64,000 bases of DNA from Candidatus Kapaibacterium sp. (lineage in GTDB: Bacteria; Bacteroidota; Ignavibacteria; Kapaibacteriales; UBA7675). A program made the position numbers and the translations under genes. Position 1 is the stretch's first letter. Every line of letters starts with the position of its first letter. Of the stretch, positions 8,723 through 33,666 are shown piece by piece. The DNA is taken from contig JANQRB010000176.1 of the NCBI GenBank assembly GCA_028284775.1, forward strand, positions 2,922 through 66,921, in the 5' to 3' direction. A model generated the notes under the pieces. That model was given only the letters and a program-made list of their open reading frames with translations. It ran no database searches and had not been told where the DNA came from.

Positions 8723-10285
8723 TTAATCATACGCGACAACAGCTTCGGCTATTCGTTCGGCTACCGCGGAAATCGTCATTACGGGATGAAAGCCGATTGA
8801 ACTCGGAATCACCGAGCCATCCGCGACAAACAAGCCCGGATAGCCGTGTACTTCGCCGTCGAGCGAGACCACTCCCCTGTCGGGCGACTCGCTCAGGTGG
8901 CAGCCGCCCAGAGGATGAACCGTCAGGATACGCTTAAACAGATTCCATGAGGCGAGCGGCGCTACTGTTCCGCCATAGTAATCGTTAACGTCTTCCATTG
9001 CACGGGTCATTTTGTTAACCAGTTCTTCATTCTCGGCAGCATAGTTCCAATCGATGTCCAGCCCACCTTTGCCCAGACGAATCTTGCCGTTGGCATTGTC
9101 GCGACCGATGGCGAAGAGATTTGTCATCCGGGCGGGGTTGCCTGCCTTGGGTCCGGGGAAGCGCAGCGGTTTGCTTAGCAGTCCGCGCCGAAATGCCCAG
9201 ACGAGCAGGCCGCCGGTTTTAGGCCACAACCAGTCGGCGAGCAGGCGCGGCAGGCCCAGGCTACCCTGTCCCAGCGAAGCCAGCACTTCCATCGCCGCCT
9301 TGTTGAAGGTCGGCGCGGCCATCGTAAAATGCGGCGCTTCGTCGAAGTAGCGGATAACCGACGTCACGTCCGGTCCGTTCCAGGGTTCCAGTTCCTGTTG
9401 GCTGCTTTGAATCGACCCCAGGAAATCGCCATTGCCGGAGAATCCGAAGCCAAGGCGGTGACTCAGCGCGGGCAGGCTCTGAAAGCTATCCCGGCTGCTT
9501 AACAGGATCAGATTAGTCCCCAGGGTTCCGGCGGCGAGCACGACGCGGCGGCCCGCAACGCTGCAACTGTCGCCGCTAGCCAGGTCCGTATAGTGGACGC
9601 GATAGCCGTCGCCGTCCGGCTCGATGTGTGTAACATTGGACCCGCTGCGCAGTTCGGCGCCCTGTGATTCCGCCCGCGCGAGATAAGTAAAGTCGAGCGA
9701 GTTTTTAGCGCCGAAGTTACAGCCGAATTCGCACTCGGCGACATACTGGCAGGCGCGCCGGCCGGGCTGGTCGGGATCATCCCAACTCACCGCCTGATCC
9801 GGATCGAAGACAGAGCGTTTATTCTGGACGGCCGCGCTGCGATAGACATCCCGTTTATCCATGACAACATCGTCCGGGACCGGGGCGATGCCCATGGTCT
9901 CTGCGACTTTGTCGTAGTATGGATCCAGATTCCGGCGCGTGAACCAGTCCGGCCAGCGCGGATCGTCGAAAACAATCTCGTCGGGCCGAATGTGAATATT
10001 GGCGTAGACAAGCGAACCGCCGCCGACGCCGCTGGCGCTGACGACGCCGATGCCGGAAAAAAAATTCAGCTCGTAAAGGCCGCGATCCGCCGCGTGCCGT
10101 GGATATCGCCAGAACAGCTCACGCGTGGCGCGGACATCGCGCGGAAACTCGCCGGGTCGATAGCGCCGGCCGCGCTCCAGCACCAGCACCGACTTTCCGG
10201 CTTCAGCCAACCGCCGTGCATTTATTGCGCCGCCGAAGCCGGATCCAATGACGACGGCGTCGAAACGTTCGCCTTGTGCGCTCAA
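8723..10285 (-). CDS. GMC-family FAD oxidoreductase (cholesterol-oxidase-like)
   Basis: The N-terminus has the Rossmann FAD-binding motif (DAVVIGSGFGGAINARRLAEAGKSVLVLERG). The C-terminus has the GMC active-site region (HPLGGCHLS...GLFVADGSVIPSSIGFHPVMTISAVAER). The start codon overlaps the stop of the upstream gene as ATGA at 10282-10285. Confidence 0.8.
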   Translation of the reverse strand: MSAQGERFDAVVIGSGFGGAINARRLAEAGKSVLVLERGRRYRPGEFPRDVRATRELFWRYPRHAADRGLYELNFFSGIGVVSASGVGGGSLVYANIHIRPDEIVFDDPRWPDWFTRRNLDPYYDKVAETMGIAPVPDDVVMDKRDVYRSAAVQNKRSVFDPDQAVSWDDPDQPGRRACQYVAECEFGCNFGAKNSLDFTYLARAESQGAELRSGSNVTHIEPDGDGYRVHYTDLASGDSCSVAGRRVVLAAGTLGTNLILLSSRDSFQSLPALSHRLGFGFSGNGDFLGSIQSSQQELEPWNGPDVTSVIRYFDEAPHFTMAAPTFNKAAMEVLASLGQGSLGLPRLLADWLWPKTGGLLVWAFRRGLLSKPLRFPGPKAGNPARMTNLFAIGRDNANGKIRLGKGGLDIDWNYAAENEELVNKMTRAMEDVNDYYGGTVAPLASWNLFKRILTVHPLGGCHLSESPDRGVVSLDGEVHGYPGLFVADGSVIPSSIGFHPVMTISAVAERIAEAVVAYD

Positions 10286-13200
10286 TGATTCGTCTCCTCC
10301 AGGTGTTGCAGAATCGTGGGATATACGTCGCGCACAGCGTGTTTACCGAAGATGCAGTCGATATGACCGTAGGCCGGCACGACATAACGTTTATAAAGCG
10401 ATTTGCCGTTGTGTTCGCGCAGCCAATCATAGCTGCGTTGGGTGCTCGACGGCAGAAAACACTCGTTCTCGCCGCCGGAGATTATCGTCATCGGTAGTGC
10501 CAGACGTTCCACATGAGGCAAGTAATCATTTGCCCCGTCGAGGCTGCGCAGCTCGGCCTTGCGCGCCAGCAGCGCCAGATGCTGAAAGGATTCGATGTTG
10601 GCGACGCCGAACAATTCGTGCAGAGCGTCGAAGGTGGCTTGGTTTAACTGATCCAGTTCGTAGAGCGTGCCGTACAAAAAGGCGATCCTGTTGTGCACGG
10701 GATTGGCGGCGCGTTCTTCGGAGTCCATCGGCCATAGCCTGAGCGCCTTGTCGAAGAGTTTCGCTTCCCAGTCCGAGCGTTCATCCACATAGGCCGTTAA
10801 GCTGTCCACGCCGAGTTTTTCCAGTATCGACGGTACGTGCAGACCTGTTTTAAGCTTGGTTAACAAAGGCACATCAAAGTGCGCCACTACCTGTGAGCAA
10901 ACAGCGGAACGTACTCCCTGCAGCCAGCCGCCCAGCATTGACATCGTCCAGGACGTTGAGCCAAAGCAATGGACGACCATCTGGACGCTCTCGGCACCGG
11001 TCAGGGCACGAACTTTGGCGACGGCGGCCGGGTAGTCATAGCGGGCGATGTCATCGGCGGAGAACTGCGTGGCGGCGGCCGGAAGCTCGATACTGGCGCG
11101 GTAGTCGAGCAGCCAGACGTCGTAGCGATGAGCAAAAAGATACTCCAGCAGGTTGCACTCGATGGTGTCGATACTGAAAATCCGACTGGAAACGCCCAGG
11201 CCGTGCGAGAGTATTACCGGTCCCTTGTCCCCGCCCCGGTAGCGTGTCAGGCGCAGGCCGACTTTGTCTTCGGTACGCAGTTCATGAACTTCAGGCGGCG
11301 TGACGCGCAGGGGACGTTGTTTGCGCGGAGCGGCCGAGGGATCGAAGTAACGACTGCCGGCGACGATCCCGCCGTAGGTGTTAAACAGCACGCCGGCGAA
11401 GAATTCCCCGAATCGCGCCTGGTATTTCAATCGCTCGCCCAGTCCCGAGACATTAGTGACCGACAGAGTCGTCAATTGCTTGGCAAAATCCGCCGGACGA
11501 ATTTTCAGCATTCCCCGGCCGAGTATCGGGCTTTGCGCATTGGGCCCCTCGTACAGCGTTATATACAGAGTTGTCGTATCGGACCAGATGTCGAATCCTT
11601 CATCATCGTGAATGATCTTATCTCCGTGGAAAAAATACGTCGTGCCTTCTTCGCTCGTAAGCCGCATCCAGTAGCGCATCAGCCGGGTGTTAACTTCGTC
11701 CGGGTGCTTGACGAACAAGTTAAACAAACCATCGCTGACGGTCAGCGGGTCACGCGAAAGCGTCGGCGCGTCGACGGTACCGGTCATACGGGCCTGATGC
11801 TGCGGCGAATTAAGCATTTGCTCCAGATCATCGGAGATCACCGTCAGGGTAAAACTGAAGGGCGACATCTCGATCCGCCCCCGCTCATAGGCCCTAGCGA
11901 AATCTTCCTTCTCATTCGTGGAAAAGTAACCGGTCATTTTTTCGGTGAAACGAATGCCGGGTTTGGCAGCCTTCACCTGACGCGTCGGGCGCGACGGCAG
12001 GTCATAACTGATATCCCAGTTATGTTCCCGGGCAATCAGAGCGGCATTGCGTTCGGCCAGCGCCGAGATGGTGAAGAATGGATTAGTACCGACAGGCGTC
12101 GGAATGATGGCTCCATCAGCCACGTACAGGCCCTCGTGCACGGCGCTTCCCGCCTTGCCGCTGAATACCTGGCCTTTGTGATTCGTGACGCCTTCTTCCG
12201 CGGCGTCGGCGATGCAGCAGCCGCCGAGCGGATGCACGGTGATCAGATCATGTCCGAAGAGCTCGGTCCAGATCGGATTACGGATAAAGGTTCCCCCGAG
12301 GGCCTTGGTCGCTTCCTGCAAACGCGCCCGGGCCTGCTCGAAGATCGGCTCGCTGCCGACGCCGGGCCAGCTGATGCGAAGGCGATCTTCGTCGAGGTAC
12401 ATTTCACCGTCACCGCTGTCATAGGTCATTATCAGATAAATCTGCGTATTGTCCATTGCGCCGTGATACGAGCCGCGCACAAGACTTTCAAGTTCGCGTT
12501 TCTTTTCACCCAGGTAGTCGATGACGCCTTCATCCGTGTCGCGGCCCAGCAGCTTCGCCAGGGCGCTAAAAGAGAGGGGCAGGATTGCCGATAGTGCGCC
12601 GGGAAAAGAACCTTCTTCAATCGACATACCCTGGCGGTAATCCTCCGCGCTCGCACGCGTATCGATAATCCCCGTAATGCAAGGGCCAACAGGTTTTTCG
12701 GGGTCGGGAGCGCGGTTGCCCCATCCGACACCGTTGATCGGCTGGTCGCAATTATAGCCGAAGCCGAGCACATCGCCATTGCCGCTGAAGTGTTTACCGA
12801 GCTTATCCGATAGGGCCAGCCCCTCCGCCCGTGAGCGCAGCAGGATTTCGGTGCTACCCAGGGTGCCCGCGGCCAGGATCACAATATCGGCGCTGACAAA
12901 CTGCTCCGGCGCGTCGAAGGCCTCGCGACCGGCGCCCAGCAGTTCGAAGTGCACCAACCACTTGTCATCCTTCTTTTCAATGTAGCGGACCTTTGTTTCG
13001 GTAAAAATCTCCGCACCGTGATTCCAGGCGTCAGGCAGATAATTCATCTGCACGGTGTTTTTCGACGTGTGATTACAGCCCGTGACGCAATCGCCGCACA
13101 AAACACAGGGCGTTTGGCTGACACCTACGTGGTTGAGGTCTTCGTCAAATTCATCAAAAGTAACGGCAATCGGCGGCTTGTAAAACTTCTCATACATGTA

Positions 13201-13701
13201 TTTGCCGGACTCGGCATGGGCAGCTGTTTTGCGCAGCTCCGGGAAGTTGTCGGGATAGGGATTCGGACGCAGCATAGCGCACGCGCGATCATAGCCCTGT
13301 TTAAGTCCGTCAGCAAGATCGTCCCGGATTGCCTGCGGCCAGCGCGGATCGTTAAAGACCCGCGGGTCGGGCTCCAGCGCTACATTGGCATTGATCAGCG
13401 AGGTACCGCCCAGGCCGCAGCCCACCAGAACGTTAATTTCGGAATTGACGTGAAAATTAAACAAGCCGGTGTCGGAGCCGATCTTGCCGGCGGCGGTGTC
13501 GAACTGCATTTCTTCATTGGCCTCGAGCAGGGTATCCGGAAACTCGCCCGGCAGTATCTCCTTCCCGCGTTCCAGCACGCAAACCTTCTGGCCGGCCCGC
13601 GCCATCCGCGATGCGGAGATTCCGCCTCCATAGCCCGATCCGATGACAACCACCGTATAGTGTTCTTTGATTGTAGCGATAGGTGATGCAAGTCGTCGCA
13701 T
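10282..13701 (-). CDS. Fusion protein: N-terminal GMC (cholesterol-oxidase-like) FAD oxidoreductase + C-terminal alpha/beta hydrolase domain (1,139 aa)
   Basis: Residues 1-~570 carry the FAD motif (VVVIGSGYGGGISASRMARAGQKVCVLERG) and the GMC C-terminal block (HPLGGCCIA...GLYVADGAIIPTPVGTNPFFTISALAER). The C-terminal third has alpha/beta hydrolase features (HGLGVSS..., nucleophile elbow HCFGSTS, late His in PAYGHIDCIFG). Confidence 0.8.
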   Translation of the reverse strand: MRRLASPIATIKEHYTVVVIGSGYGGGISASRMARAGQKVCVLERGKEILPGEFPDTLLEANEEMQFDTAAGKIGSDTGLFNFHVNSEINVLVGCGLGGTSLINANVALEPDPRVFNDPRWPQAIRDDLADGLKQGYDRACAMLRPNPYPDNFPELRKTAAHAESGKYMYEKFYKPPIAVTFDEFDEDLNHVGVSQTPCVLCGDCVTGCNHTSKNTVQMNYLPDAWNHGAEIFTETKVRYIEKKDDKWLVHFELLGAGREAFDAPEQFVSADIVILAAGTLGSTEILLRSRAEGLALSDKLGKHFSGNGDVLGFGYNCDQPINGVGWGNRAPDPEKPVGPCITGIIDTRASAEDYRQGMSIEEGSFPGALSAILPLSFSALAKLLGRDTDEGVIDYLGEKKRELESLVRGSYHGAMDNTQIYLIMTYDSGDGEMYLDEDRLRISWPGVGSEPIFEQARARLQEATKALGGTFIRNPIWTELFGHDLITVHPLGGCCIADAAEEGVTNHKGQVFSGKAGSAVHEGLYVADGAIIPTPVGTNPFFTISALAERNAALIAREHNWDISYDLPSRPTRQVKAAKPGIRFTEKMTGYFSTNEKEDFARAYERGRIEMSPFSFTLTVISDDLEQMLNSPQHQARMTGTVDAPTLSRDPLTVSDGLFNLFVKHPDEVNTRLMRYWMRLTSEEGTTYFFHGDKIIHDDEGFDIWSDTTTLYITLYEGPNAQSPILGRGMLKIRPADFAKQLTTLSVTNVSGLGERLKYQARFGEFFAGVLFNTYGGIVAGSRYFDPSAAPRKQRPLRVTPPEVHELRTEDKVGLRLTRYRGGDKGPVILSHGLGVSSRIFSIDTIECNLLEYLFAHRYDVWLLDYRASIELPAAATQFSADDIARYDYPAAVAKVRALTGAESVQMVVHCFGSTSWTMSMLGGWLQGVRSAVCSQVVAHFDVPLLTKLKTGLHVPSILEKLGVDSLTAYVDERSDWEAKLFDKALRLWPMDSEERAANPVHNRIAFLYGTLYELDQLNQATFDALHELFGVANIESFQHLALLARKAELRSLDGANDYLPHVERLALPMTIISGGENECFLPSSTQRSYDWLREHNGKSLYKRYVVPAYGHIDCIFGKHAVRDVYPTILQHLEETNH

Positions 13702-14967: not shown

Positions 14968-17079
14968 TCAGGAAGTTATCATGTCATGCAGTATGAAGAC
15001 GGCCTCCTGAATGAACACGTCTTTGCGAATTTGTTTATACCATTTGCCGGCTTCTTTTTTCTTGTCCTCATCGCTGTCGATGCGTTCCTTATCGGCCTTC
15101 AGGGTATAAACGGTCAGATCAGGATGCTCGCGGTCGATTTCTTTATACTGCTTGGACTGCTCTTTGAATTCTTCTTCTTCGCGCTGTACCGTCGCCGCGT
15201 TGAGGCTCTGCCGCGTCTGGTCGCGGCGTTTCTTCAGTCGGTCGATATTCTCGTGTAGCAGAGCAAAGGTTTCGTTTTGCTCGACTCGTTCAGCGCTTTT
15301 GCTGCGCAGATCATTCACATAATAAGTAGCGCCCTGCCAGCGACGATAGGATAAGGCATCGGTGGCGCGCCAGGGCAGGGCATGGTCCAGCGAACGCTCG
15401 CCGATCTCGATATAACTGTAGGGATCGGGCAGCAGGACGTCGGGCGTTACGCCTTTGAACTGCGTGGACTCGCCATTGATCCGGTAGAATTGCTGAATCG
15501 TCAGTTTCAGCGAGCCGAAGGGCTGGTCCGACGTTAACTCGGCCGGAATGAATCGATTCATATCGGCAAAGGTCTGCACCGTTCCCTTCCCGAAAGTCGG
15601 CGAGGTGCCGACAATAACGGCCCGGCCGTAATCCTTGAGAGCGCCGGCAACGATTTCAGAGGCCGATGCGCTGTAGGTATTCACCAGCACGACCAGCGGT
15701 CCGTCATAGGTAACGCCCGGATTTTCATCGGTCAGGACGCGCGGCCGTTTCTCCTTGCCGCGCACCTGTACAATCGGTCCGGTCTCGATAAACAGCCCGG
15801 CCATCTTGACCGCGTCCTGCAAAGCGCCGCCGCCGTTATTGCGCAGGTCGAGAATCACGCCGTTCACTTTGTCGCGACGAAGCTTCATAAGTTCGCGCCG
15901 CACGTCTTCGGATGATGTCCGCCCACCTTCGTTGCGGAAATCGGAGTAGAACTTCGGCAGGTAGATATAGCCGATCTTTTCTTCATTTTTGTTTTCGATG
16001 ATGGCGGACTTCGCGTAGGTTTCTTCCAGCACGACCACATCGCGGATGATGGGCACAACAATAATGTCGCCGGCGGGTTTTTTCACGGTCAGACGCACCT
16101 CGGAGCCTTTCGGCCCGCGAATCAGCCGCACGGCATCGTCGATGTCGACATCGACAACGTCTTCCGGCTCGGCATCGCCCTGCGCAACTTTCAGTATGAT
16201 ATCTTCCGCTTCCAGATCGCCCTGCCGCCAGGAAGCGCTGCCCGGCACGATGCGTGTCACCTTAATATAGCCGTTGTCGTCCATCAGTTGCGCGCCGATA
16301 CCTTCCAGCTTGCCGGTCATTGAGATATCAAAATTATCTTTTTCGGCCGGCGGGAAGTATTCCGTGTGAGGACCATAAGCGCGCGCCATGGCGTTAACAT
16401 AAGCGGCGAAGCGGTCGTCTTCGTCTTCATTGCCGACATTGTGAAAAAAGCGCTCCATATTTTCGGCCACTTTGGCGCGGGCGCTTGCCTCAAACTCCGC
16501 CTCAGTTTTCACTTCGACTTCCTCGCCGCTCTCGGCGGCATCCCGGAGCTTGTCCTCCCGCTTGTCGATCATGTTCAGATAGCGATTCAAGGCCGAATAC
16601 TTCAGCACCTTGCGCCAGCGATCTTTGAGCTCGGCCGAACTTTGACAGTATGGGCGCTTGTCGCGGTCGGTTTCCAGGTACTCATCGACGGTGAAATCAA
16701 AGGGAGCGGCCAGAATCTCATCGACGTAAGCCTTAACTTCAGTCCGGCGCTTCGCCACAATCGCCGTCGCGCGCTCATAGAGATTGAAGGTGCCGGCCTG
16801 CAATTCATCATCGATCGTTAAGCGGAACTGGCTGAGGGCGTCAATGTCGCTCTGCAGCAGGAAACGCTTCTGGTAATCGAGACGGTCGACATAAAGGTCG
16901 TAAGCACGTTCGGAGAGTTTATCGTCGAGAGGCAGGGGGTGATAATGACCTGAGTTGAGTACCTGAATCAGGGCCTTGCTCAGTATTGTTTCCTTGTCGA
17001 TGTCCGCGCCGACGAGCGTGTAGCCGGCGATACCCAGCACAAGCAGCGGCAAGACCAGCGTCAAAGTCCATTTCTTCAT
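14968..17079 (-). CDS. prc: Tail-specific (C-terminal processing) protease, S41 family, Prc-like
   Basis: The 703-aa protein has a signal peptide (MKKWTLTLVLPLLVLGIAG). A PDZ region is present. The S41 catalytic core is recognisable (GYIYLPKFY...LDLRNNGGG...LVVLVNTYSASASEIVAGALKDYGRAVIVGTSPTFGKGTVQ). The long N- and C-terminal extensions are typical of Prc. Confidence 0.85.
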   Translation of the reverse strand: MKKWTLTLVLPLLVLGIAGYTLVGADIDKETILSKALIQVLNSGHYHPLPLDDKLSERAYDLYVDRLDYQKRFLLQSDIDALSQFRLTIDDELQAGTFNLYERATAIVAKRRTEVKAYVDEILAAPFDFTVDEYLETDRDKRPYCQSSAELKDRWRKVLKYSALNRYLNMIDKREDKLRDAAESGEEVEVKTEAEFEASARAKVAENMERFFHNVGNEDEDDRFAAYVNAMARAYGPHTEYFPPAEKDNFDISMTGKLEGIGAQLMDDNGYIKVTRIVPGSASWRQGDLEAEDIILKVAQGDAEPEDVVDVDIDDAVRLIRGPKGSEVRLTVKKPAGDIIVVPIIRDVVVLEETYAKSAIIENKNEEKIGYIYLPKFYSDFRNEGGRTSSEDVRRELMKLRRDKVNGVILDLRNNGGGALQDAVKMAGLFIETGPIVQVRGKEKRPRVLTDENPGVTYDGPLVVLVNTYSASASEIVAGALKDYGRAVIVGTSPTFGKGTVQTFADMNRFIPAELTSDQPFGSLKLTIQQFYRINGESTQFKGVTPDVLLPDPYSYIEIGERSLDHALPWRATDALSYRRWQGATYYVNDLRSKSAERVEQNETFALLHENIDRLKKRRDQTRQSLNAATVQREEEEFKEQSKQYKEIDREHPDLTVYTLKADKERIDSDEDKKKEAGKWYKQIRKDVFIQEAVFILHDMITS

Positions 17080-17560
17080 TCATCAATCCAAATAAATTAG
17101 CGTTCGGTATCTCAAACCCATTCCGGCTTGTATCGCTCGCACCGACAGCGCCGGGCATTAGCAACTAATTTCTCATTCTTTAGCCAGCTTTGCAAACAGG
17201 CAAACGATTTTAGTATTCGCCTGGTTTCCGTGAACAAAAAAAGAAACACGGTCTACGGCGCGATAGCCGATAAATCGGCTTGGTCCAAACGTGATGCACG
17301 CTGTTTACGACCTGAGATCAAAAATGTTGTGGTATGAGATTGGGCTTGCGTGCGAAGAGAAATTGCCGGTGCTACTTGGTGTCAATGACCGGAAAATTTT
17401 TCGCACATTCAACAGAAATTCTTTTGCACCCTGTTTTAGCCGTCGCTGTAATGGAACTTGCCAGGTATTCAATGAGTCAATATTTCAAAAATACAGACAC
17501 AATGTTATATTAAAAATTCAGCATACATACGTAGTTAAGCTCACTTGGAGGACTGTTCGT

Positions 17561-19552
17561 GTGAAATCTCCTACCGACAGCAAGAGTGACAATCAAGATG
17601 GCGCCAACCAACCAGGGCTCCGGCAGATGGAAATAGAAGAATTTCTGCGCCGGATTTATGACGGACAAAATGACCAGAAGCGCTTCGCCTTCTTCCTCGG
17701 CGCGGGCTGCTCGTCAAGCTCTGGGATTCCAACCGCCGGCGAACTGGTAAAAAATCATTGGCTTCCGCGCCTGCGTAAATTACTGGCGCCTGATCGTTCC
17801 GACCTCGATCAATGGGCCCGCGAAACAATAAAAGCCTATGATCCTGGGAATCCCGCTCAGTCCTATGGTGCGCTGATTGAACGACTGTTCCTGACCCCCG
17901 AAGAACGACAACAAGAGATCGAAAACCTTTGCGACGGCAAAACGCCTTCCTTCGGCTATGCCGTGCTGGCTCAACTCGTCGCCAGCAATCGTAATCGTTT
18001 TAATATAGTACTGACTACAAACTTCGATGATCTCATTGCCGACGCACTGTACCTCTACACGGAGGCAAGACCGCTCGTCATTCATCACGAGTCGTTGGCC
18101 GCATTCATCCGGCCGACGCGCAGCCGCCCGCTGGTCGTCAAACTTCACGGCGATCATCGTTTGTCGCCGCGCAACACTGCCCTCGAAACCAAGTCGATTG
18201 AACAGGAGATTCGCAAAAACACGGCGATGGTGCTCAACGATCGCGGCCTGATATTCATGGGCTACGGCGGGGCGGATCGCGGCATTATCGAGATGCTAAA
18301 TGGCCTGCCCACACATGCGCTGCCGTTTGGCGTTTTCTGGATTCACCCTAACGAACCTCTGGGTGCGATTCGAAGCTGGCTGGCCGATCGCGGTGGTTAT
18401 TGGGTTAAGAGCGGTCCATTTGATGAAGTCATGCTGCTCGCTCAAAGCGAATTCGAGCTTCCTCATCCGGACCAGGAACGTTTCAATCGTATTTTTGACG
18501 ACTACCATCGAAAGTTCCAGTTACTCTCGGCTTCGATCCAGGACAAGCCCGTAGGCGAAGCGGGAACAGAAGCACTGACTAGGGCGCGTGACGAGGCGGA
18601 AGCGCGATTCCCGGATTACTGGAAAGTAATAAGTGAAGCCGACCGCTATAGAAGTTCCAACCCTGATCGCGCCGACGAGTTATACAAACAAGGCGTAGAA
18701 CAGTTTCCAGACGCAGCTCCTCTCCTCGGCAGCTACGCAAGCTTCCTAATAGATCACCGCAAAGACTCCGACCGCGCTGAGTCAATGTTCAAACGGGCAC
18801 TGTTAGCAAATGCAAAAGACGCCATAAATCTCGGCAACTATGCAAACTTTCTCAAAAATTACCGCGAAGACTTCGACGGTGCTGAAACAAGGTACAAACA
18901 GGCGATGGAAGCAAATCCAAACAACGCCATAAACCTCGGAAACTACGCAACCTTCCTTTGGAAGAATCGCAGGGACTTCGACGGAGCTGAAGCAATGTAC
19001 AAACAGGCGATGGAAGCAAACCCTAAAGACGCCACAAACCTCGGTAACTACGCTGATTTCCTCGCGCACATCCGAACAGACTTGGACGGCGCTGAAACAA
19101 TGTACAAAAGGGCGATGGAAGTAGATCCAAATCTCACCATTTATCTCGCAAATCTGAGCGGACTTATGCTGGCGCGTGGCAAAGAAGAAGGCTTGACTCA
19201 TCTTCAGCGAGCGCTTGAACAATTGCAAAGCAAGCCCTATCCAACTGTCGAGCTCGAGTGTGCATTTTATCTCTATGCTCACGGACCCGCGGAGCAGCGC
19301 ACGAAAGCGTTGGAAACCGCAAGACGGCTGATAGAGTCAGGCGTTCGCTCGCCGGGATGGGATATGTCTCGTAATGTCCAACGAGCGCAAGAGGACAAGC
19401 ACCCGGAATCCCAGTGGTTGGAGAAATTGGCAAAGGTGATCGGCGATGAAGCTGAAGTTGAAGTACTGAACAATTGGAGCGCCTGGGCGAACATCAAATT
19501 CGAGAACAATTCGGACAATGAAGCAGGTAAAGAGCCACCGGCGGCAGGTTAG
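17561..19552 (+). CDS. SIR2-like (SIR2_2/ThsA-type) NAD-binding domain fused to a C-terminal TPR array; candidate NADase-type antiphage defence protein
   Basis: The SIR2_2 signature elements are FFLGAGCSSSSGIPTAGELVKNHW, NIVLTTNFDDLIADAL, VVKLHGDH and IFMGYGGAD. A C-terminal array of four or more 34-aa TPRs is present (xxNLGNYAxFLxxxRxDFDGAExxYKQAMEANPxx). I place the start at in-frame GTG 17561 because GGAGG lies at 17547-17551. The ORF track start at 17291 runs through AT-rich, unconserved-looking leader. Confidence 0.8.
   Translation: MKSPTDSKSDNQDGANQPGLRQMEIEEFLRRIYDGQNDQKRFAFFLGAGCSSSSGIPTAGELVKNHWLPRLRKLLAPDRSDLDQWARETIKAYDPGNPAQSYGALIERLFLTPEERQQEIENLCDGKTPSFGYAVLAQLVASNRNRFNIVLTTNFDDLIADALYLYTEARPLVIHHESLAAFIRPTRSRPLVVKLHGDHRLSPRNTALETKSIEQEIRKNTAMVLNDRGLIFMGYGGADRGIIEMLNGLPTHALPFGVFWIHPNEPLGAIRSWLADRGGYWVKSGPFDEVMLLAQSEFELPHPDQERFNRIFDDYHRKFQLLSASIQDKPVGEAGTEALTRARDEAEARFPDYWKVISEADRYRSSNPDRADELYKQGVEQFPDAAPLLGSYASFLIDHRKDSDRAESMFKRALLANAKDAINLGNYANFLKNYREDFDGAETRYKQAMEANPNNAINLGNYATFLWKNRRDFDGAEAMYKQAMEANPKDATNLGNYADFLAHIRTDLDGAETMYKRAMEVDPNLTIYLANLSGLMLARGKEEGLTHLQRALEQLQSKPYPTVELECAFYLYAHGPAEQRTKALETARRLIESGVRSPGWDMSRNVQRAQEDKHPESQWLEKLAKVIGDEAEVEVLNNWSAWANIKFENNSDNEAGKEPPAAG
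18727..19140 (+). repeat. Intragenic tandem repeats (period 102 nt = one TPR unit), about 4 copies with long near-identical stretches
   Basis: Units begin near 18829, 18931 and 19033. Blocks such as GTACAAACAGGCGATGGAAGCAAA recur at 18893 and 18996. A diverged copy lies near 19099. Confidence 0.7.
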
Positions 19553-19586
19553 TGCTTTTTCAAATAAGTTATTTGCATACTTTCTT

Positions 19587-19693
19587 CCCCTTAAGGTAAG
19601 GGGGTGAGGCGCGGGCTGAGCGCCGAACGAGGAGGGGTTATGAGTATTCAAGGACTTTCTAACTCCCCTACCCCCTCTTTCAAAAAGAGGGGG
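19587..19693. other. Two GC-rich perfect hairpins in the intergenic region after the SIR2-TPR gene (terminator-like / insertion-boundary-like)
   Basis: Hairpin 1 is CCCCTTA-agg-TAAGGGG at 19587-19603. Hairpin 2 is CCCCCTCTTT-caa-AAAGAGGGGG at 19671-19693, followed by an A7 run. GGCGC-N7-GCGCC lies at 19609-19625. Neither hairpin is followed by a canonical T-tract on its own strand. Confidence 0.4.
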
Positions 19694-19840
19694 ACTTAAA
19701 AAAACTAATTTGAAAGAGTACCAGTGAGGATGCTGCGCCGCAAACTCCGGAAGAGCAGCAAAACCGGTTCCAACAAAAATCAGTTAACACACGGCGGCCA
19801 AGACTTCAAGTGAATACAGACGGCACAGTAGCGCGTCCGC

Positions 19841-21148
19841 TCACAAAAGCATAAAGCACAAGCCGGCAACGATCGTAAAGGGAATCGCAAACAGCGCCAG
19901 CTTGAGGGGGCTGAGGCCATTGTCAAAATATTTCTTGAGGATCGCGTTGCCGGCCGGATTCGGGGCATTGGCGATAATGGTCAGGCCGCCGCCTGTGACC
20001 GCGCCCGCGACGATGGCGTATTTCTTTTGTCCGATGGCCGAGAATGGTTCGGAGAATCCCGGTTCAAGCGCCAATGTCGAGAGATAGGTTATCGCGGCAT
20101 TATCGTTGAAGGCGGTCAGGATAGTCGAGCCGAGAAAAAGGGGAACCTCGTCGAGGCTGGCGATGATCGGCGCGATCCACCACTCCTGCAGCGAGCCGTG
20201 GGTAACGAGGCCTGCCAGGAAAAAGCCGACCAGCAAGGCCGGTTTGATATTGATATCATCCTGGTACTCGCCGGAGATCGCGCACCAGCCCAGAAAAAAC
20301 AGGAAGCCCAGCATCAGGAGCACGGCGTGGTGGGCGGTGAAGACAGCCCAGCCGAGCGAGAGAATATGGACGCCTATCACCCAGGCCGGAATTCGCTGCA
20401 CCTTCTCTTCCGCCACGGGCAGGACATCCATCCGCTTAAATTCGCGAAAGAAAAGCGCCGCCGCGCCAAAGGTACAGATCACAATCGAGAGGGCGGCTTT
20501 CCAGCCGAAATGCGTGAACATATAAGTGAAGTTTTCCGCCCAGCCCCATTTGGCGGCAACCATAAGGACCGGCGGCGCGGCAAAGTGCGTCAGCGTCCCT
20601 CCGATTGAGACATTAACAAATAGCAGCGCAATTGTGGTGTATTTCAGGACGTTGCTCGGATTACGCTCGAAAAAGTAGCGCGCCAGCAGCATGGCCGAGA
20701 TCGTCATGGCCGCCGGTTCGGTAATGAAAGACCCCAGGATCGGCGTGATGATCAACACTGCAACGTAGAACTTGGCCGTTTGTCCCGGTATTGGAATGAA
20801 GCGACTGAGGCTAAGGACAATTTTGCGGGTGATATATAATACCGGCCGGGTAGCCGCCATCACCATGATTACGATGACAAAGAGCGGTTCCATCATCTTG
20901 GGCGTCACTTTGTCGAAATAGTCCAGGGTCCAGTTGAGGTCGTAGAACCACCAGGAAAGATAAAACAGCGGCACCAACCACAATCCGAAAACAACTTCGA
21001 TTTCGCCGAGAAAATGAAATATGTTCTCGCGCATCGATCCCTCGGGATAGCGGGAAGCGAGCTTGTTGAAATAACTGGCGCTAAAGGTATGCAGAACGGC
21101 CAGGGCAAAAACGCCGGTCGCGATGTAATCAAAAGAGACTTCGGGCAT
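19841..21148 (-). CDS. Polytopic membrane protein, probable ion transporter (resembles the 'putative Na+/H+ antiporter' DUF1504-type family)
   Basis: The 435-aa protein has about 11-12 predicted hydrophobic helices. It has no ATP-binding motifs. The family assignment is from memory and is weak. Confidence 0.5.
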   Translation of the reverse strand: MPEVSFDYIATGVFALAVLHTFSASYFNKLASRYPEGSMRENIFHFLGEIEVVFGLWLVPLFYLSWWFYDLNWTLDYFDKVTPKMMEPLFVIVIMVMAATRPVLYITRKIVLSLSRFIPIPGQTAKFYVAVLIITPILGSFITEPAAMTISAMLLARYFFERNPSNVLKYTTIALLFVNVSIGGTLTHFAAPPVLMVAAKWGWAENFTYMFTHFGWKAALSIVICTFGAAALFFREFKRMDVLPVAEEKVQRIPAWVIGVHILSLGWAVFTAHHAVLLMLGFLFFLGWCAISGEYQDDINIKPALLVGFFLAGLVTHGSLQEWWIAPIIASLDEVPLFLGSTILTAFNDNAAITYLSTLALEPGFSEPFSAIGQKKYAIVAGAVTGGGLTIIANAPNPAGNAILKKYFDNGLSPLKLALFAIPFTIVAGLCFMLL

Positions 21149-21330: not shown

Positions 21331-21349
21331 TAGTGTCAAAATAACACTA
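21331..21349. promoter_or_regulatory. Candidate NrtR operator upstream of nrtR: TAGTGT-N7-ACACTA palindrome
   Basis: The site is cTTAGTGTcaaaataACACTAtat, ending 11 nt before the nrtR ATG. A near-identical site sits at the nadV promoter. Confidence 0.5.
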
Positions 21350-21359
21350 TATTTGCCCA

Positions 21360-22025
21360 ATGAAAAAGCCGAACAATCCGATCGCAGCCGTCGACATGGG
21401 CATCTTCCGCTTCGATGGTGAAAGACTAAGCGTCTTTCTCGTGGAGTTGCTTCACGGCTCCTTCCGCGGACGACTGGCGCTCCCCGGCGCCCGCCTGGCC
21501 GCCGAAGAAAGCATGGAAGATGCGGCACTCCGCGTGTACCGGGAAGCAGGCGGCGATACGCCATGCTTCATCGAACAGGTTTATACATTCTCAGCTGTCG
21601 ACCGCGATCCGCGCAGCCGCGCGATCGCAACGGCCTATATGGCTTTTCCGCCGGACGGCTGCCCGCCATTTCAGCCTTGCAGTAAGTATGCCCGCGGCGC
21701 CTGGTACGATGTTTTCACGGTCCGGGACCTGGCCTACGATCATGAGCAGATTTCGCGGGTCTGCCGGCAGCGAATTGCCGCCAAGCTGAACTATACGACG
21801 ATTGCGCTGCTCTTGCTGCCGGAGGAATTTACGCTGACGGAAATGCAGACTCTCTATGAACTGTGCAGCGGCGAACAATTCGATAAACGCAACTTTCGCA
21901 AAAAGATCAAATCGATGAACATCATTGTGGAAACCGGTCGTCAACGAAGCGGTCGCAAAGCCCGTCCCGCAATGCTTTATCGCGCCAAACGGCGAAGCAT
22001 GGAGCTCGTTTCGCTCTTCCGCTAA
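21360..22025 (+). CDS. nrtR: NrtR-type Nudix-related transcriptional regulator of NAD metabolism (Nudix domain + C-terminal winged-helix)
   Basis: The N-terminal Nudix-like fold has a degenerate Nudix box (GRLALPGARLAAEESMEDAALRVYREAGG). The C-terminal ~90 aa match the NrtR DNA-binding domain pattern (ISRVCRQRIAAKLNYTTIALLLLPEEFTLTEMQTLYE...). The gene sits directly upstream of nadV, as in described NrtR regulons. Confidence 0.75.
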   Translation: MKKPNNPIAAVDMGIFRFDGERLSVFLVELLHGSFRGRLALPGARLAAEESMEDAALRVYREAGGDTPCFIEQVYTFSAVDRDPRSRAIATAYMAFPPDGCPPFQPCSKYARGAWYDVFTVRDLAYDHEQISRVCRQRIAAKLNYTTIALLLLPEEFTLTEMQTLYELCSGEQFDKRNFRKKIKSMNIIVETGRQRSGRKARPAMLYRAKRRSMELVSLFR

Positions 22026-22044: not shown

Positions 22045-22063
22045 TAGTGTATTTTTTACACTT
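22045..22063. promoter_or_regulatory. Second candidate NrtR operator, immediately upstream of nadV: TAGTGT-N7-ACACTt
   Basis: The site is cacTTAGTGTattttttACACTTaaa, ending 3 nt before the annotated nadV ATG (22067). It shares both half-sites and the AT-rich 7-nt spacer with the site at 21331-21349. Confidence 0.5.
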
Positions 22064-22066
22064 AAA

Positions 22067-23737
22067 ATGCCGGTCCCATTGCTGGCAATGGAGTCCGGAG
22101 AAAGCGAGTCCCTCATGAGTCCGAAACAAGGTAATCCGCAACAGGTATTCCTGCCCCAGCGCAAAACCCACAGAACTCCGCGTCTATTGATGGCCGATGC
22201 CTACACCCTGGGCAGCGGCAAATTCCAGGCGCCCGTCGCACAGGAAAAATCGATATACTATCTCGCCTTTCGCCGCGCCCTGAACGATGTCGACCCAGAG
22301 TTGTATGCCGGGGATGACGAACGCATCGTATTCTGCGGCCTGCAGCGCATACTCGAAAGGCTGTTCTACGAGCCTGTCAGTCATGCCGAGATTGATGAAA
22401 CGCTGCGATTTCTGGCCCGCTTCAAAGCCACGTCGCAGGGCTTGCGGCGCTATCATTTCGACGAAACATTATGGCGCCGCGTCGTGGATGAATTTCAGGG
22501 CCGGCCGCCAATACGCATCGAAGCACTGCCGGAGGGCAGCGTGGCTTATCCCCACGAACCGGTCATACAGGTTAGCTCGCTTGTAGCGGGAATGGGTGAA
22601 TTGGCGGCGTGGTTCGAAAGCAAGATTGTCCAGGTCTGGAGCACGACCGAACGAGCGACCAGGGGACGCCACTGGTTCAAGTATCTGACGGAAATGATTG
22701 CCGAGGTCGATCCTGCCCTGGATCGCGAGGAGCGCTATTTTCTGGCGGCAACACTCACGCACGATTTCGGCGATCGCGGTGGAATCTGCGCGCAGGAATC
22801 CGAAGAGCTGGGAATGACGCACCTGTATTCATTCAGCGGCAGCGACACACTGGCGGGCGCCTACCAGGCCTGGAAAAACAGCGGCGAGCAGGCCGGCGCC
22901 GCAAGCTCGGTGGCAGCCCTGGCGCATCGCAGCGTGCAGCCCTGGCTCCGGGAAGGCGACAGCTACCGCAGCATCTATGACGCGGCCGACAATGGCGACT
23001 TCATTTCGATGGTCGCCGACTGTTATGACTACTTCGCTGCCGTGGATAATTATCTGCTGCCCCTGGCGCTCGAATCGGCCGCCGCCAGCAACGGTAAAAT
23101 TGTGGTTGCGCGGCCTGACAGCGGCGATCCGCTTGACTGCGTGCTCTACGTCTGCAATCTGGCTATTGCGCATGGTTTGTATACCGAATACCATGGCTAC
23201 AAGTATCCGACGACTCTCAAGTGTATCCAGGGCGACGGCATGTCCTTCGCCGTGATGAAACACATCTTCGAAGAACTTAAACAACGGCGATTAGCGCCCC
23301 ACGCCTGGCTGCTCTTCGGTGTCGGCGGCGGCTTGCGCAATCATCTGCAGCGTGATCACCTGGGCGCCAAATATGCCCTCTGCGCTGTCGGCAAGCAAGA
23401 CCGGCCGGTCATTAAATTGTCGGAGACGCCAGGTAAGTCGACACTCCCGGGACCTTTCAAGCTACGCCGCGGTGAAAGTTATCTGCGTTCAGCCACTACG
23501 ATCGCCCTGGCCGCTGAAGCCGGCGACAATGCGCTGATTGAATACTTTAACGGCGCGCGGGTCGAACGACCCTTTGGCCCGGGTCAGGATGATGATTTTG
23601 GCATCATTAGGCAACGCATTCAGGACGGCTTTGACGCGATGCCGCCCAGGATGCCACTGCCCGAGAAAGCATATCCGGCATCAGAGCTGGTGCTGCGGCA
23701 GAGGAAAGCAGAAGAAGAAGCTCGGAGACATAGTTAA
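22067..23737 (+). CDS. nadV: Nicotinamide phosphoribosyltransferase (NAMPT/NadV family)
   Basis: The NAMPT-family signatures present are RIEALPEGSVAYPHEPVIQV, LTHDFGDRG, SFSGSDTLAG and VARPDSGDP. The true start may be a downstream ATG (MESGES at ~22091 or MSPKQ at ~22115), since the operator abuts 22067. Confidence 0.85.
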   Translation: MPVPLLAMESGESESLMSPKQGNPQQVFLPQRKTHRTPRLLMADAYTLGSGKFQAPVAQEKSIYYLAFRRALNDVDPELYAGDDERIVFCGLQRILERLFYEPVSHAEIDETLRFLARFKATSQGLRRYHFDETLWRRVVDEFQGRPPIRIEALPEGSVAYPHEPVIQVSSLVAGMGELAAWFESKIVQVWSTTERATRGRHWFKYLTEMIAEVDPALDREERYFLAATLTHDFGDRGGICAQESEELGMTHLYSFSGSDTLAGAYQAWKNSGEQAGAASSVAALAHRSVQPWLREGDSYRSIYDAADNGDFISMVADCYDYFAAVDNYLLPLALESAAASNGKIVVARPDSGDPLDCVLYVCNLAIAHGLYTEYHGYKYPTTLKCIQGDGMSFAVMKHIFEELKQRRLAPHAWLLFGVGGGLRNHLQRDHLGAKYALCAVGKQDRPVIKLSETPGKSTLPGPFKLRRGESYLRSATTIALAAEAGDNALIEYFNGARVERPFGPGQDDDFGIIRQRIQDGFDAMPPRMPLPEKAYPASELVLRQRKAEEEARRHS

Positions 23738-24070: not shown

Positions 24071-27000
24071 TCACTGAATTCGCTGAAAGCCCGCCACTGA
24101 TCTACGGCCGTCCCTGTGTACAAACTGAATGAAATACATGCCGGGCGCCAGTCCCGCCGTTGAAATGTTAAATTCCCGGGTATCGGTCAGCTCACGTGAA
24201 AAATGGATAGCACCGTGCAGCGACAAGATTCTGGCGACACCGCTGACGTTTTCGTCGAAGCGCAGCCTAAGTTCGCCGGTCGTTGGGTTGGGAAAACTTG
24301 CTATACCAATCGAGGCGCTGCCGTCGGGCGGATTAACAATCCCGGTGCCGATAACAACTGTGACATCGTTTGACGTCAAGACAGGATAGGTGCCGCTGAA
24401 CATCCGTACTTTTGTGTTAAACACTTCGTCCAATGCGCTTCCGGACTTTATCGGCATAGCAAAGACAAACTCCAGTCTGTCATCCGGAACTACACTCTGT
24501 GGTTCGAAACTCGCGCGGGGAATGTTTAATCGATAGTGCCCCCCGGAACGATGTTCGACGAATCGGTCCTGGCGGTTGAAGTCGACAAGTGTCGGTCCCG
24601 CTGTCGAATATGACGTATCATAATCAATCCAGAACTCGAGCCGGCCCTTGTGACGCAGGTGGCCGCGATTGAGAGCTTCCAGGCGGAAATACACGGTGTC
24701 GCCGCCAGTTACGGCTGTCTGGCGGACAGGAGTGCCTTCATCGAGGATGTCGAGTTGTATGTTTCTCTCTTGCAAGGGCCAGGCAAAACATTGCTCCGTC
24801 AGCGGGTCATTTGGCTGGTCGGACTTTGCAAGCAGATCGAAGCAGACTTCATCGCGGCTCGTTTCCGTCGCTATCGCCACTGTAAGGTTTACTGTCCTTT
24901 CCTCCCAGGGCAGCAGGTCTGAAAATTTCTGTAAAATGATCGTCCCGTCCTCTCGTAATTCGCTTGCGCCATAGTCGCTCGATGAAGCGACAATCTCCAT
25001 AGTTGCACCGCCGGCGCTTAGCCAAACAGCACGGAAACGAGCGTCATTGGCACTCAAATTGCGGAATGTCAGTTCAATGCTGAAAAGGCCGGTTTCAATT
25101 AACGGTTCGACGACAAGTTCGGCAGCAGGCCTTGGAGTCGGCGGCGAGGGAATCGGCAATTCGATGTAGGCATTGTGGCCGGCGCTGTCCTCCAGGTCGA
25201 CCCAAAGGGCATTGTCGGCCCGACCGCAGGGCGGCAACCATTGTTGGCTTGCCTGGAGCCGGATTTTGTGTCGATATCCACTCAAGGGAACAGTGGCTTT
25301 GAAGGATCCGTCCGCAGCGGTGACGACGACATTATCGTCTTGCGAGACCACGACGGCTTCATTTGCCACTGCCGGTTCACCCGGATCGCGTATGCAATCG
25401 TTATCGAGGTCTTCGAACACCAGGCCGCGCAGTGTGAAATTTTCAACACTGCCGGGTTCGCAAATTTCGAAGCGCTCGATAATTCCCTCGCCGGATAGCG
25501 TCAGATACCCGTCTCCCTGCGGTGCAAACACCACATCGGTAAAATTTCGACCCAGGGTCGGACATTCCGATACGATCGAGCCTGTCTCCGTATCGAGCAC
25601 GTAAACATTTTTCGTCACTTTGTCCGCAGCCAGCAAATGACGCGAGTCAGGCATGAAGGCCACTTTGAATGCTCTGACATCGAAACGGCGATAGTTGCTT
25701 AGATTGACCTCCGGCCATGCCTGCGTTTCCCATACAGCGATGTAGTCACCCCGCGCAACCGCAAGCAATTGATCGTCAGGCGCAAAGACAGGCAGGACAC
25801 TCTGGTCCTGTTCCGCATCCGAAAGATTAGTGTTAATTTTCTTAAACTCGTCGGAGTTAAATGAGGCCAAACCTTTCTCATCGAATTTTAATCGTCTGTT
25901 GCCGGCATACTGAACGCTTTCAGGGTTGCCCGGACCTGTTTTTTGTGTTAGCAGATAGCCAAAATTACCATAGGCCAGGGCTGCGTTGTGCGCTGTTGCG
26001 AGACTTACCGTAAGGCCGATCTCCGTCGTGCTGAGCACCGACCGACTGTTCGCATCCAGCAAACTAAGCCACCCGACGGGATCAAGATCGTTGCCGCGAA
26101 AGTGGCCGAAGGCAAGCAGTAAAAAACGGCCGTCGCCGGTATAGGCAATCGCCTGCCTATCCACGTGGTCTGCATCGCTGGTCAGAGGGACTTCCTGCTC
26201 AGCGATCATTGCCCCCGAATAGACATCCCAGGTCTGCAAAACTATCACAGCCCGTTTGTGATCAGAGGCCAGGGTTAAACGGCGGCCATCAGCGGTAAAA
26301 TCAAGATTGCTGCCTCGATAGGGCGACAGCTCGATGCGATGACGCACTGTTCCATCGGCCTCGAGAATTCCGACAAGCGCCGCATTATCCGGCGATGTGA
26401 TATTGCTTTTGCGGGCTTTGTAGACGATCGATCCCCCGTCCGGCGCGAAGTCAAGATAGTCGACATGCCTATAGTCTGCCTGCCGCAGCCAACTAGCCCG
26501 GGCAAAATGTTTACTGAAGTCGCCGTCCACTTTCAGGGATTCGTTGTAAAAAGTTCCAGCTTCGGTATATATTTTCAAGGTCACAGTCTTCCGCCCGGCG
26601 GCATTGGCTGTAATACTAAGCGGAAGGTCTATGCAGGATGCCACTGCTAATGACAGGGGAAAAATGTTGTCGGTAAAGCTAAGGGCGGGCATGCCATCGC
26701 CCGGCATAACCTCGATGCCGAAGATCGTCAGGCTGACAGTGTTTGTGGAGCTATTGCATATTCGCAAAGTTTCGTTCAACGGCAGCCCCGGCTCCGCCTG
26801 ATAGATCGGCTCGGCGGGAGAATCATCCTTTAGGCGAAAAATCCTGATCTGTTTTCCCGGGTCGGACAACTCGATGATGGCGCGTTGCGATGGATACCAA
26901 TCCGTATCCACCACAATCTCGACCATGTCATCACTCTTGCGGGGACCATTAAACTGGAACTCGACTGTCTGTGATTGGCCGGATTCCAGGAAGACATCAT

Positions 27001-33333: not shown

Positions 33334-33516
33334 ACATGCCTCGGTGTTCTGAAATCAATTTTTCTTACCAGAGTCTCTGGCCCATACTTCACGTACTTTG
33401 TACGCGAGCGTGAGAATGCAGCAGCCCGCCTCAAGCCGAAAAAAAATTGTATACGCATCACTGTTGCAATGAAGCTGTGTCGCTTGCATTTGACACTCCG
33501 AGTACTTGGGCAACAA

Positions 33517-33544
33517 GTCTCTCTCTCCAGATTGAGAGAGAGAG
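33517..33544. other. Perfect 11-bp alternating CT/GA hairpin between the flotillin and giant-ATPase genes
   Basis: The sequence is GTCTCTCTCTC-cagatt-GAGAGAGAGAC. It is palindromic, so it forms on either strand. It lies 123 nt 3' of the flotillin stop and about 185 nt 5' of the ATPase start. Confidence 0.5.
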
Positions 33545-33666
33545 ACCGCTACGGTCGGATCAGACTATTCTCATTGGCCAGATCACTGAACAGACTAAAC
33601 ACAGGACCGGTAAAAGTGGACTTGTCTCGGAATGCGGATGCTGTCCCGGGCAGACCTGGCAAGGGG

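Follow-up and report, generated by a model that had tools for sequence, protein, structure and literature searches.

In the immune NAD+ hydrolase (NADase) DSR2, binding of a ligand to the repeat arm releases the enzymatic activity (PMC11850899, PMC10981675). In GsSir2, the Sir2-APAZ protein of the Geobacter SPARSA system, replacement of either N142 or H186 by alanine abolishes NADase activity (PMC10781750). A preprint assigns SIR2_2 or 'SIRim' proteins to an immunity-associated clade, in which the eukaryotic clades D and E branch among the members associated with prokaryotic Argonautes (pAgo; bioRxiv 10.1101/2024.09.18.613514); a published sirtuin tree also labels SIR2_2 members with 'TPR' domains (PMC12700824). 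Here we describe a protein of this type, SIR2-TPR, encoded in a stretch of 64,000 nucleotides (hereafter the window) from Candidatus Kapaibacterium sp. (assembly GCA_028284775.1, contig JANQRB010000176.1, positions 2,922 to 66,921). According to its sequence and a structural model, SIR2-TPR combines an intact immune-type SIR2 active site with a confidently predicted TPR superhelix on the same chain, and it has no partner gene. It is probably an NAD+-consuming SIR2_2 enzyme that is regulated through its TPR arm. For the broader reading, drawn by analogy, that it is a single-gene, DSR2-like NAD-depleting abortive-infection protein, we see about an even chance.

The Catalytic Domain and the TPR Arm

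Four motifs, FLGAGCSSSSGIP, LTTNFDDL, VKLHGDH, and MGYGGAD, follow one another in SIR2-TPR, with the GAGCS loop at residues 47–51 and GYGGAD at residues 234–239, and Pfam SIR2_2 (PF13289) matches residues 149–252 with an E-value of 5e-10; the ordered SIR2_2 signature reported in a preliminary description of the locus is thus present. In PADLOC, SIR2-APAZ proteins from short-Argonaute systems come first (E 2e-39, residues 39–291), their models covering no more than residues 21–291; a SIR2-pAgo fusion model (1.6e-31) and the candidate PDC-S65 (4.7e-25) follow. ThsA is matched weakly (E 2.6e-5), and DSR models are absent from the matches at E ≤ 1. No full-length PADLOC model fits the architecture of SIR2-TPR, of which the SIR2 domain alone is matched.

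A profile made from 24 N-terminal domains was also searched against PDB with a cut-off of E ≤ 0.01. It retrieved GsSir2 (8in8, 8jkz, 8jl0; E 6e-27 over 264 positions, residues 21–284), DSR2 (E 2.7e-6, confined to the SIR2 core with about 100 residues), and KomC, the Kongming NADase (1e-5); at this cut-off only SPARSA, DSR2, and KomC were found, and no deacetylase sirtuin. The kinship to ThsA and DSR proteins that was first proposed needs correction: the nearest relatives are the SIR2-APAZ proteins, ThsA is remote, and DSR2 is reached by the PDB profile.

In the profile alignment, N154 of the TTNFDD motif and H196 of the KLHGD motif (codons 18020–18022 and 18146–18148, both checked) correspond to N142 and H186 of GsSir2. 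Both residues are kept without exception in the full-length homologues (57 of 57), and the glycine-rich loop and GYxGxD are equally invariant. Best matches to deacetylase sirtuins, or the absence of this Asn/His pair, had been named beforehand as grounds for giving up an immune role; we found immune NADases only, and an invariant pair. Since the protein has only three cysteines (50, 124, and 567), it contains no CxxC pairs and no Zn-ribbon. In its place, helices spanning residues 59–140 form a helical small domain in an AlphaFold2 (AF2) model, which was built on an alignment of 57 sequences and has a mean predicted local distance difference test score (pLDDT) of 89.5 and a predicted template modelling score (pTM) of 0.77. 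When this model was compared with PDB by Foldseek, SPARSA Sir2-APAZ chains ranked best (top match 8jl0_A), then full-length DSR2, and then the superhelices of consensus-TPR proteins and of the O-GlcNAc transferase (OGT).

By sequence and model, the SIR2 domain is nearest to SPARSA SIR2-APAZ, then to DSR2 and KomC, and is far from ThsA and the deacetylase sirtuins. Its predicted fold, its glycine-rich loop, its Asn-His dyad, and the absence of a Zn-ribbon place it in SIR2_2/'SIRim', and NAD+ hydrolase activity is predicted. The putative effector, a SIR2_2 domain, thus shares its modelled fold and its Asn/His pair with SPARSA SIR2-APAZ and DSR2, both of which are immune NAD+ hydrolases.

These results bear on a first alternative, according to which SIR2-TPR would be a housekeeping or regulatory NAD-dependent enzyme (a deacylase, an ADP-ribosyltransferase, or a growth-control NADase) whose TPR arm recruits a cellular substrate or partner and no component of a phage. 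We regard this main rival as a serious possibility, though an unlikely one. The catalytic domain is very strongly conserved, at 40–74% identity across phyla, as would suit such an enzyme; however, it shows no detectable similarity to deacetylase sirtuins and lacks their Zn-ribbon, and its structural and profile neighbours are all immune NADases.

The C-terminal TPR array noticed at first was recovered by Pfam, by the AF2 model, and by Foldseek. Four Pfam families (TPR_19, TPR_17, TPR_14, and TPR_TmcB) match within residues 350–640, and the three central units are near-identical 35-residue repeats (LGNYAxFLxxxRxDxDGAExxYKxAMExxP) encoded by a 105-bp tandem repeat that Tandem Repeats Finder places at 18724–19131 (3.9 copies, 76% match). 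Differing numbers of TPR repeats give the homologues lengths between about 560 and 1060 aa. A conserved cap overlaps the last helical hairpins; its motif, ECxFYxxAH...RSPGWDxSxN...HP..WL.KLA.VI, includes W600, L636, and W642, which are invariant in the 57 homologues. Among 143 family representatives, hidden Markov models of the cap and of the TPR match 86 and 121, respectively. The idea that different effectors are swapped on the TPR-cap module was considered and set aside, a C-terminal query having returned mostly fragments, TPR-only proteins, and a few unannotated or P-loop N-termini, which is not decisive. Proteins of about 307 aa that have SIR2-TPR-type repeats and no N-terminal enzyme domain were observed (e.g., P0265 at locus L085, 6001–6924, which adjoins a DinB-family gene).

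By analogy with DSR2 and SPARSA, the TPR superhelix and the cap would keep the enzyme off (PMC11850899, PMC10981675, PMC10781750, PMC11452484). A ligand bound by the TPR arm, either a protein or a peptide and most plausibly of phage origin, would be the trigger, and activation would probably proceed through a change in conformation or oligomeric state, as in DSR2 and SPARSA. The active enzyme is expected from homology to hydrolyse cellular NAD+ to ADP-ribose and nicotinamide, and the infection would thereby be aborted. The variable number of TPR units, the near-identical tandem repeats, and the occasional fusions of this SIR2 subtype to other sensor-type modules were counted in favour of this sensor logic.

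A different trigger is envisaged in a second alternative, in which SIR2-TPR is a suicide or dormancy NADase set off by stress or damage, acting as a toxin-like module of growth arrest; in place of a phage-specific protein, the signal would be endogenous, for example unfolded or unprocessed protein C-termini or peptides. The repeats are very regular, with a conserved Asn/Tyr in each unit, and their likeness to the peptide-binding TPR superhelix of OGT suggests generic binding of extended peptides. The missing defence-island signal described below also suits this idea. However, it is purely inferential, no antitoxin-like neighbour accompanies the gene, and the adjacency to a Prc protease recurs at no other locus; we consider it improbable.

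Distribution and Neighbourhoods of the Family

A word-indexed protein search returned 774 proteins at E ≤ 1e-5, and the best 120 listed of these are 33–63% identical to SIR2-TPR over the full length and carry both SIR2_2 and TPR. Over the N-terminal 345 residues, identity to homologues is 34–74%. An exhaustive HMMER search of 1.84 billion representatives (50%-identity clusters) with the SIR2 profile gave 6,510 matches at E ≤ 1e-3 and 1,344 at E ≤ 1e-30. In species-representative genomes, 170 stretches contained a relative; 80 loci were kept, and neighbours were analysed in 76. The 80 loci cover more than 20 phyla (Acidobacteriota, Chloroflexota, Verrucomicrobiota, Planctomycetota, Gemmatimonadota, Actinomycetota, Myxococcota, Pseudomonadota, Cyanobacteria, and others) plus Archaea, where Methanosarcinaceae, Methanoperedenaceae, and Heimdallarchaeota (Asgard) are carriers. 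The best matches, at 69% identity, are found in Acidobacteriota. The Prc protease encoded beside SIR2-TPR in the window is at most 57% identical to any other, the next-best matches (about 50%) being in Bacteroidota; by this measure, the genome of the window resembles a deep lineage of the FCB group. The high identity of SIR2-TPR across phyla (up to 69%) points to horizontal transfer; the patchy distribution fits such transfer as well and speaks against a housekeeping role.

The architecture is thus not rare: it belongs to a huge cross-domain family of which the copy in the window is one ordinary member. The initial view that SIR2 plus TPR is not a well-characterized system holds insofar as no full-length PADLOC model exists, and has to be qualified by the size of the family and by the published TPR-bearing SIR2_2 proteins. 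The architecture as such would not surprise a specialist; what deserves attention is the size of the family, its reach into Asgard archaea, the absence of a link to defence islands, and the kinship to pAgo-associated SIR2.

Variants of the family were also recorded. Two SIR2-TPR copies can occur in one locus (L004) or in one genome (L050/L065). Occasionally, a SIR2 domain of this subtype is joined to SAVED and a GT4-conflict glycosyltransferase, or to an FGE-sulfatase domain. Individual fusions (P0438, P0386, P0403, P0317, and P0305) carry SAVED+GT4-conflict, FGE-sulfatase, HisKA/HATPase, PPIase, and phosphoglucomutase domains, and some of them may be gene-call artefacts. In Methanosarcinaceae (L046 9998–11158, L050 9989–11197) and Methylomirabilales (L023 5858–6856, L052 4284–5141), SIR2 open reading frames (ORFs) of 285–402 aa lack the TPR array; as they lie well within their contigs, these may be SIR2-only or split variants.

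The search for a partner took in every ORF of 90 aa or more up to 10 kb to either side at the 76 loci and every ORF of 30–120 aa within 800 bp, and these ORFs were clustered. No conserved partner was found in these loci: apart from SIR2-TPR itself, no cluster extends to more than eight of them, a spread reached by a generic response regulator of the sigma-54 type, and SDR dehydrogenases, FtsX permeases, and similar proteins come after it. Likewise, no Pfam family is present in more than three loci among the 125 directly adjacent ORFs, and no small ORF within 800 bp is common beyond close relatives. The single-gene status of SIR2-TPR, anticipated from the window, is therefore well supported for large and small neighbours. 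The same result speaks against a housekeeping enzyme, as there is no conserved partner or operon that would indicate a pathway.

Several observations weigh against an antiphage function. The directly adjacent ORFs are ordinary (alcohol, aldehyde, and acyl-CoA dehydrogenases, gyrase A, glutamine synthetase, ClpP, NAD synthase, Obg); at one ORF on each side, two of the 125 match PADLOC at E ≤ 1e-10, and the 109 ORFs next out give few matches, of a generic kinase or UvrD-helicase type. Overall, no more than about 2% of the 234 neighbouring ORFs match PADLOC, all generically, and none of the ten large genes around the copy in the window does. At least five lineages also have the gene at a position that is syntenic from one genome to a related one: Solirubrobacterales (L032/L037/L068), Methanosarcinaceae (L046/L050), Heimdallarchaeota (L042/L049), Methylomirabilales (L023/L052), and Neomegalonema (L079/L081). 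In the Heimdallarchaeota pair it is 80% identical, compared with 57–64% for the flanks. No relative of the close family was found among the 2.9 million viral contigs of IMG/VR, and we found no paper that characterizes a stand-alone SIR2-TPR protein, nor anything relevant in the literature on PDC-S65 or TmcB. Finally, the compositional deviation of the gene is modest: its GC content is 0.527 for a window mean of 0.550 ± 0.031 (z -0.76), and its GC content at third codon positions (GC3) is 0.562 for a mean of 0.642 ± 0.043 (z -1.87), the second lowest among 41 genes. The lower GC content that had been noted by eye is thus marginal.

Part of this evidence is what a housekeeping enzyme would lead one to expect, namely housekeeping neighbours with essentially no known defence genes, syntenic retention, and a Heimdallarchaeota pair that is more conserved than its own flanks; TPR-only proteins and proteins with other N-termini that have the same type of repeat also lie in ordinary contexts. 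A housekeeping context across related genomes had been named in advance as an argument against defence, and it was found in part, as ordinary neighbours and syntenic positions in several lineages, with distant relatives on plasmids and a provirus as the opposing observation. The missing island signal is in itself weak negative evidence, since PADLOC is biased toward cultured taxa and the ORF calls are crude. In Solirubrobacterales, the SIR2-TPR gene is 60–81% identical and its flanks are mostly 77–95% identical; between L032 and L068, identity is 75% in the SIR2 domain and 61% in the C-terminal half.

Relatives on plasmids and proviruses beside integrases argue against a housekeeping role. In annotated collections, SIR2_2+TPR relatives with 30–37% identity are found on mobile elements. 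One is encoded by the Haloferax pleolipovirus provirus Halfgib1 (L090 2062–3729, MW344766.1), close to the integrase and attP. Another lies on a conjugative Rhizobium phaseoli plasmid (NZ_CP013540.1; L088 8004–9899), between FRG, S8-peptidase, and DUF3616 genes and a NERD-kinase gene; this run, which also includes a large ATP-binding protein, looks like a defence island. A copy on a Methylobacterium plasmid is flanked by the insertion sequences IS5/IS3, and a further one is carried by a Photobacterium plasmid. In addition, Vibrio phage 10N.286.45.B12_PE001 (L089 4947–6785, PQ189330.1) encodes a SIR2_2 relative of 612 aa whose C-terminal half is unannotated, with no detectable TPR. The integrase and CI repressor genes of this 186-like temperate phage lie on either side of it, which is a typical place for prophage-borne defence cargo.

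The patchy distribution, the absence of the gene beside prc in the nearest relatives, the lower identity of the Solirubrobacterales gene compared with its flanks, the double copies, and the plasmid, provirus, and prophage relatives were counted as signs of an accessory or mobile character. Single-gene antiphage defence, as originally proposed, remains the best reading of SIR2-TPR at even chances; its one-gene organization and the distant relatives on mobile elements help it, and the defence-island context is missing in the close family.

The Locus and its Surroundings

The features of the locus are collected in Table 1. SIR2-TPR lies in the one long frame of the locus, an ORF at 17291–19552 (+), whose first 270 nt are AT-rich (GC 0.38–0.41) and yield no homologue alignments. 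GTG 17561 is the likely start, as a GGAGG box (17549–17553) is located 7 nt ahead of it, and a Logan contig from the same organism, on which genes were called independently, likewise yields a product of 663 aa. Because most homologues start near residue 20 of the query, ATG 17629 (M23) is a possible alternative start.

Table 1. Coordinates of SIR2-TPR, its parts, and the neighbouring features in the window.
Feature	Position	Strand	Description and source
SIR2-TPR coding sequence	17561..19552	+	663 aa, GTG start; gene calls and homologue alignments
SIR2_2 (SIRim-type) Rossmann-like domain	17621..18460	+	aa 21–300; Pfam, PADLOC, PDB profile, Foldseek
Helical linker	18473..18604	+	aa 305–348; AF2 helices 305–327 and 336–348, pLDDT 84–93
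TPR-like alpha-solenoid	18612..19336	+	aa 352–592, about seven helical hairpins; AF2 pLDDT above 93
Conserved C-terminal cap	19193..19510	+	aa 545–650, overlaps the last hairpins; alignment of 57 homologues
AT-rich intergenic leader, 481 bp	17080..17560	.	between divergent prc and SIR2-TPR genes; non-coding by gene call
Structured 3' intergenic region	19553..19730	+	two perfect hairpins; between convergent SIR2-TPR and antiporter genes
Prc/Tsp S41 protease gene	14968–17079	-	upstream, divergent; TSP_NTD, PDZ, Peptidase_S41, DUF3340 (Pfam)
PF07399 putative Na+/H+ antiporter-family gene	19841–21148	-	downstream, convergent; Pfam
NrtR-like gene	21360–22025		about 1.8 kb downstream of the SIR2-TPR gene; family libraries
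NAMPT/NadV-like gene	22067–23737		family libraries

As first described, the leader is AT-rich and non-coding (GC 0.428 vs 0.515 for all intergenic DNA of the window), and the flanks, a protease and an antiporter-family gene, are unrelated to SIR2-TPR. A sigma-70-like promoter match is found in the leader at 17484–17511. An Rfam scan of the whole window at gathering scores gave zero families, and thus no RNA element in the leader.

The insertion of the gene beside prc was examined through prc orthologues. A metagenome scan gave nothing; in the two nearest Prc relatives (56–57% identity; L082/L084), the synteny of Prc and DinB_2 is kept, and TonB-receptor/HmuY genes, not SIR2-TPR, occupy the opposite side. 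Since these relatives differ over the whole right flank, a clean insertion is not demonstrable, and the gene can be described only as absent at this position. Given this and the modest shift in composition, the notion of an acquired AT-rich cassette receives weak support. The same two loci share a Prc-DinB_2-UnbV_ASPIC synteny with the window (window 8723–13701 compared). Between DinB_2 and the UnbV_ASPIC gene (4803–7226), the window has additional genes of the GMC-oxidoreductase type (8723–10285 and 10282–13701) as well as an ORF of 467 aa with no Pfam match (7305–8708).

Downstream of the gene, both perfect hairpins mentioned in the preliminary description were found by an inverted-repeat search, at 19587–19603 (7-bp stem, 3-nt loop) and at 19671–19693 (10-bp stem, 3-nt loop; chance expectation 0). 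The region as a whole is predicted to fold into four hairpins closed by a long-range stem, with a minimum free energy of -69.5 kcal/mol (z -4.6). The hairpins were considered as intrinsic terminators and rejected, as neither is followed by a T-run or U-tract and there is no consensus match on the + strand; a repetitive extragenic palindrome (REP) or miniature inverted-repeat transposable element (MITE) was also rejected, as neither the window nor the fetched loci contain another copy. Transcription arriving from either of the convergent genes may be stopped in this region, though not by a canonical intrinsic terminator. An independent assembly of the same organism (L001) stops within it, at window position 19645.

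The genes beyond the antiporter raise a third alternative, in which SIR2-TPR belongs to a local NAD salvage regulon with the nrtR and nadV-like genes and is co-regulated by the ADP-ribose-responsive NrtR. This link is attractive because a SIR2 NADase would make both the ligand of NrtR (ADP-ribose) and the substrate of NadV (nicotinamide). A palindrome, TAGTGT-N7-ACACTA, is present at 21331–21349, perfect, before nrtR, and at 22045–22063, with one mismatch, before nadV; the two are likely NrtR operators of a small NAD-salvage operon. However, the SIR2-TPR leader lacks this box, the antiporter gene that intervenes has the opposite orientation, and no NrtR, NadV, antiporter, or Prc homologue is found within 10 kb of 76 other SIR2-TPR loci. 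Membership in such a regulon is largely refuted and retains hardly any probability, and the adjacency of SIR2-TPR to NAD genes is best treated as a coincidence.

Farther downstream, a run of large genes on the - strand (24071–37066) has a lower GC3 (about 0.59). It encodes a protein of 1190 aa with no Pfam match, one of 1639 aa with DUF3686 ('ATPase involved in DNA repair'), DUF7902, and AAA, one of 745 aa, and one of 228 aa with no Pfam match. These large genes gave no matches in PADLOC. The large-ATPase cluster might be an acquired module.

Significance and Comparison with Known Systems

If the defence reading is true, a very abundant single-gene NAD-depletion system, with more than 1,000 50%-identity clusters in soil and sediment phyla and in archaea, would join the repertoire; it would have been missed by island-based discovery because the family is not in defence islands. 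It would also provide a minimal model of a plain TPR arm that gates a SIR2 NADase without an NTPase or an Argonaute, and it would help to trace how the pAgo-associated SIR2 module evolved. Should defence prove to be the wrong reading, SIR2-TPR would represent an 'immune-type' sirtuin recruited to cellular regulation and would call for caution toward defence calls made from domain content. A bolder proposal, which we find speculative and quite unlikely, is that SIR2-TPR proteins are a so far overlooked, very widespread class of one-protein innate immune receptors of Bacteria and Archaea (Asgard archaea among them), with neither NTPase nor partner and stable in core chromosomal neighbourhoods instead of defence islands, and that the SIR2-APAZ effectors, as well as the eukaryotic 'SIRim' clades branching with them, have their sister or source in the SIR2 module of these proteins.

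Among the described systems, ThsA of Thoeris shares a SIR2_2-type NADase domain with SIR2-TPR. It differs by its SLOG or Macro ligand-binding domain and by its partner, the TIR protein ThsB, which makes the signalling nucleotide; Pfam detects neither a SLOG or Macro domain in SIR2-TPR nor a TIR gene among its neighbours. The PADLOC single-gene candidate PDC-S65 has a model that matches residues 38–284 of SIR2-TPR. As only positions 29–276 of this 592-position model are matched, the C-terminal half differs.

Like SIR2-TPR, the Avs5/SIR2-STAND and bNACHT-SIR2 receptors combine a SIR2 effector and a TPR-type repeat sensor in one protein (PMC12931631). They differ by a central STAND/NACHT nucleoside triphosphatase (NTPase) that drives oligomerisation. 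No NTPase domain is detected in SIR2-TPR by Pfam or NCBIfam, and only two linker helices are seen in the AF2 model.

The SIR2 domain closest to that of SIR2-TPR, by sequence and by predicted structure, is that of SPARSA GsSir2, which agrees with it in the helical insertion, in the Asn of TTNFDD, and in the His loop of HGD. SIR2-TPR is nevertheless not a SPARSA protein: it has a TPR array and a cap where GsSir2 has an APAZ domain. In addition, no Argonaute gene was found in the window or in related loci, and sensing at SIR2-TPR loci therefore cannot be guided by nucleic acids.

DSR2 of Bacillus subtilis (PDB 8k98, 8wya, and others) resembles SIR2-TPR in joining an N-terminal SIR2 NADase and a C-terminal alpha-solenoid repeat sensor on one chain, and in needing no partner gene. 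It differs by its size (about 1000 aa), its MID domain, its HEAT-like repeats instead of canonical TPR, and its known ligand, the tail tube protein. The two SIR2 domains are only distantly related, and SIR2-TPR does not belong to DSR1/DSR2 by sequence; the likeness is seen by profile and, over the whole length, by fold, and DSR2, with its ligand-gated repeat arm, is the best mechanistic analogue of SIR2-TPR.

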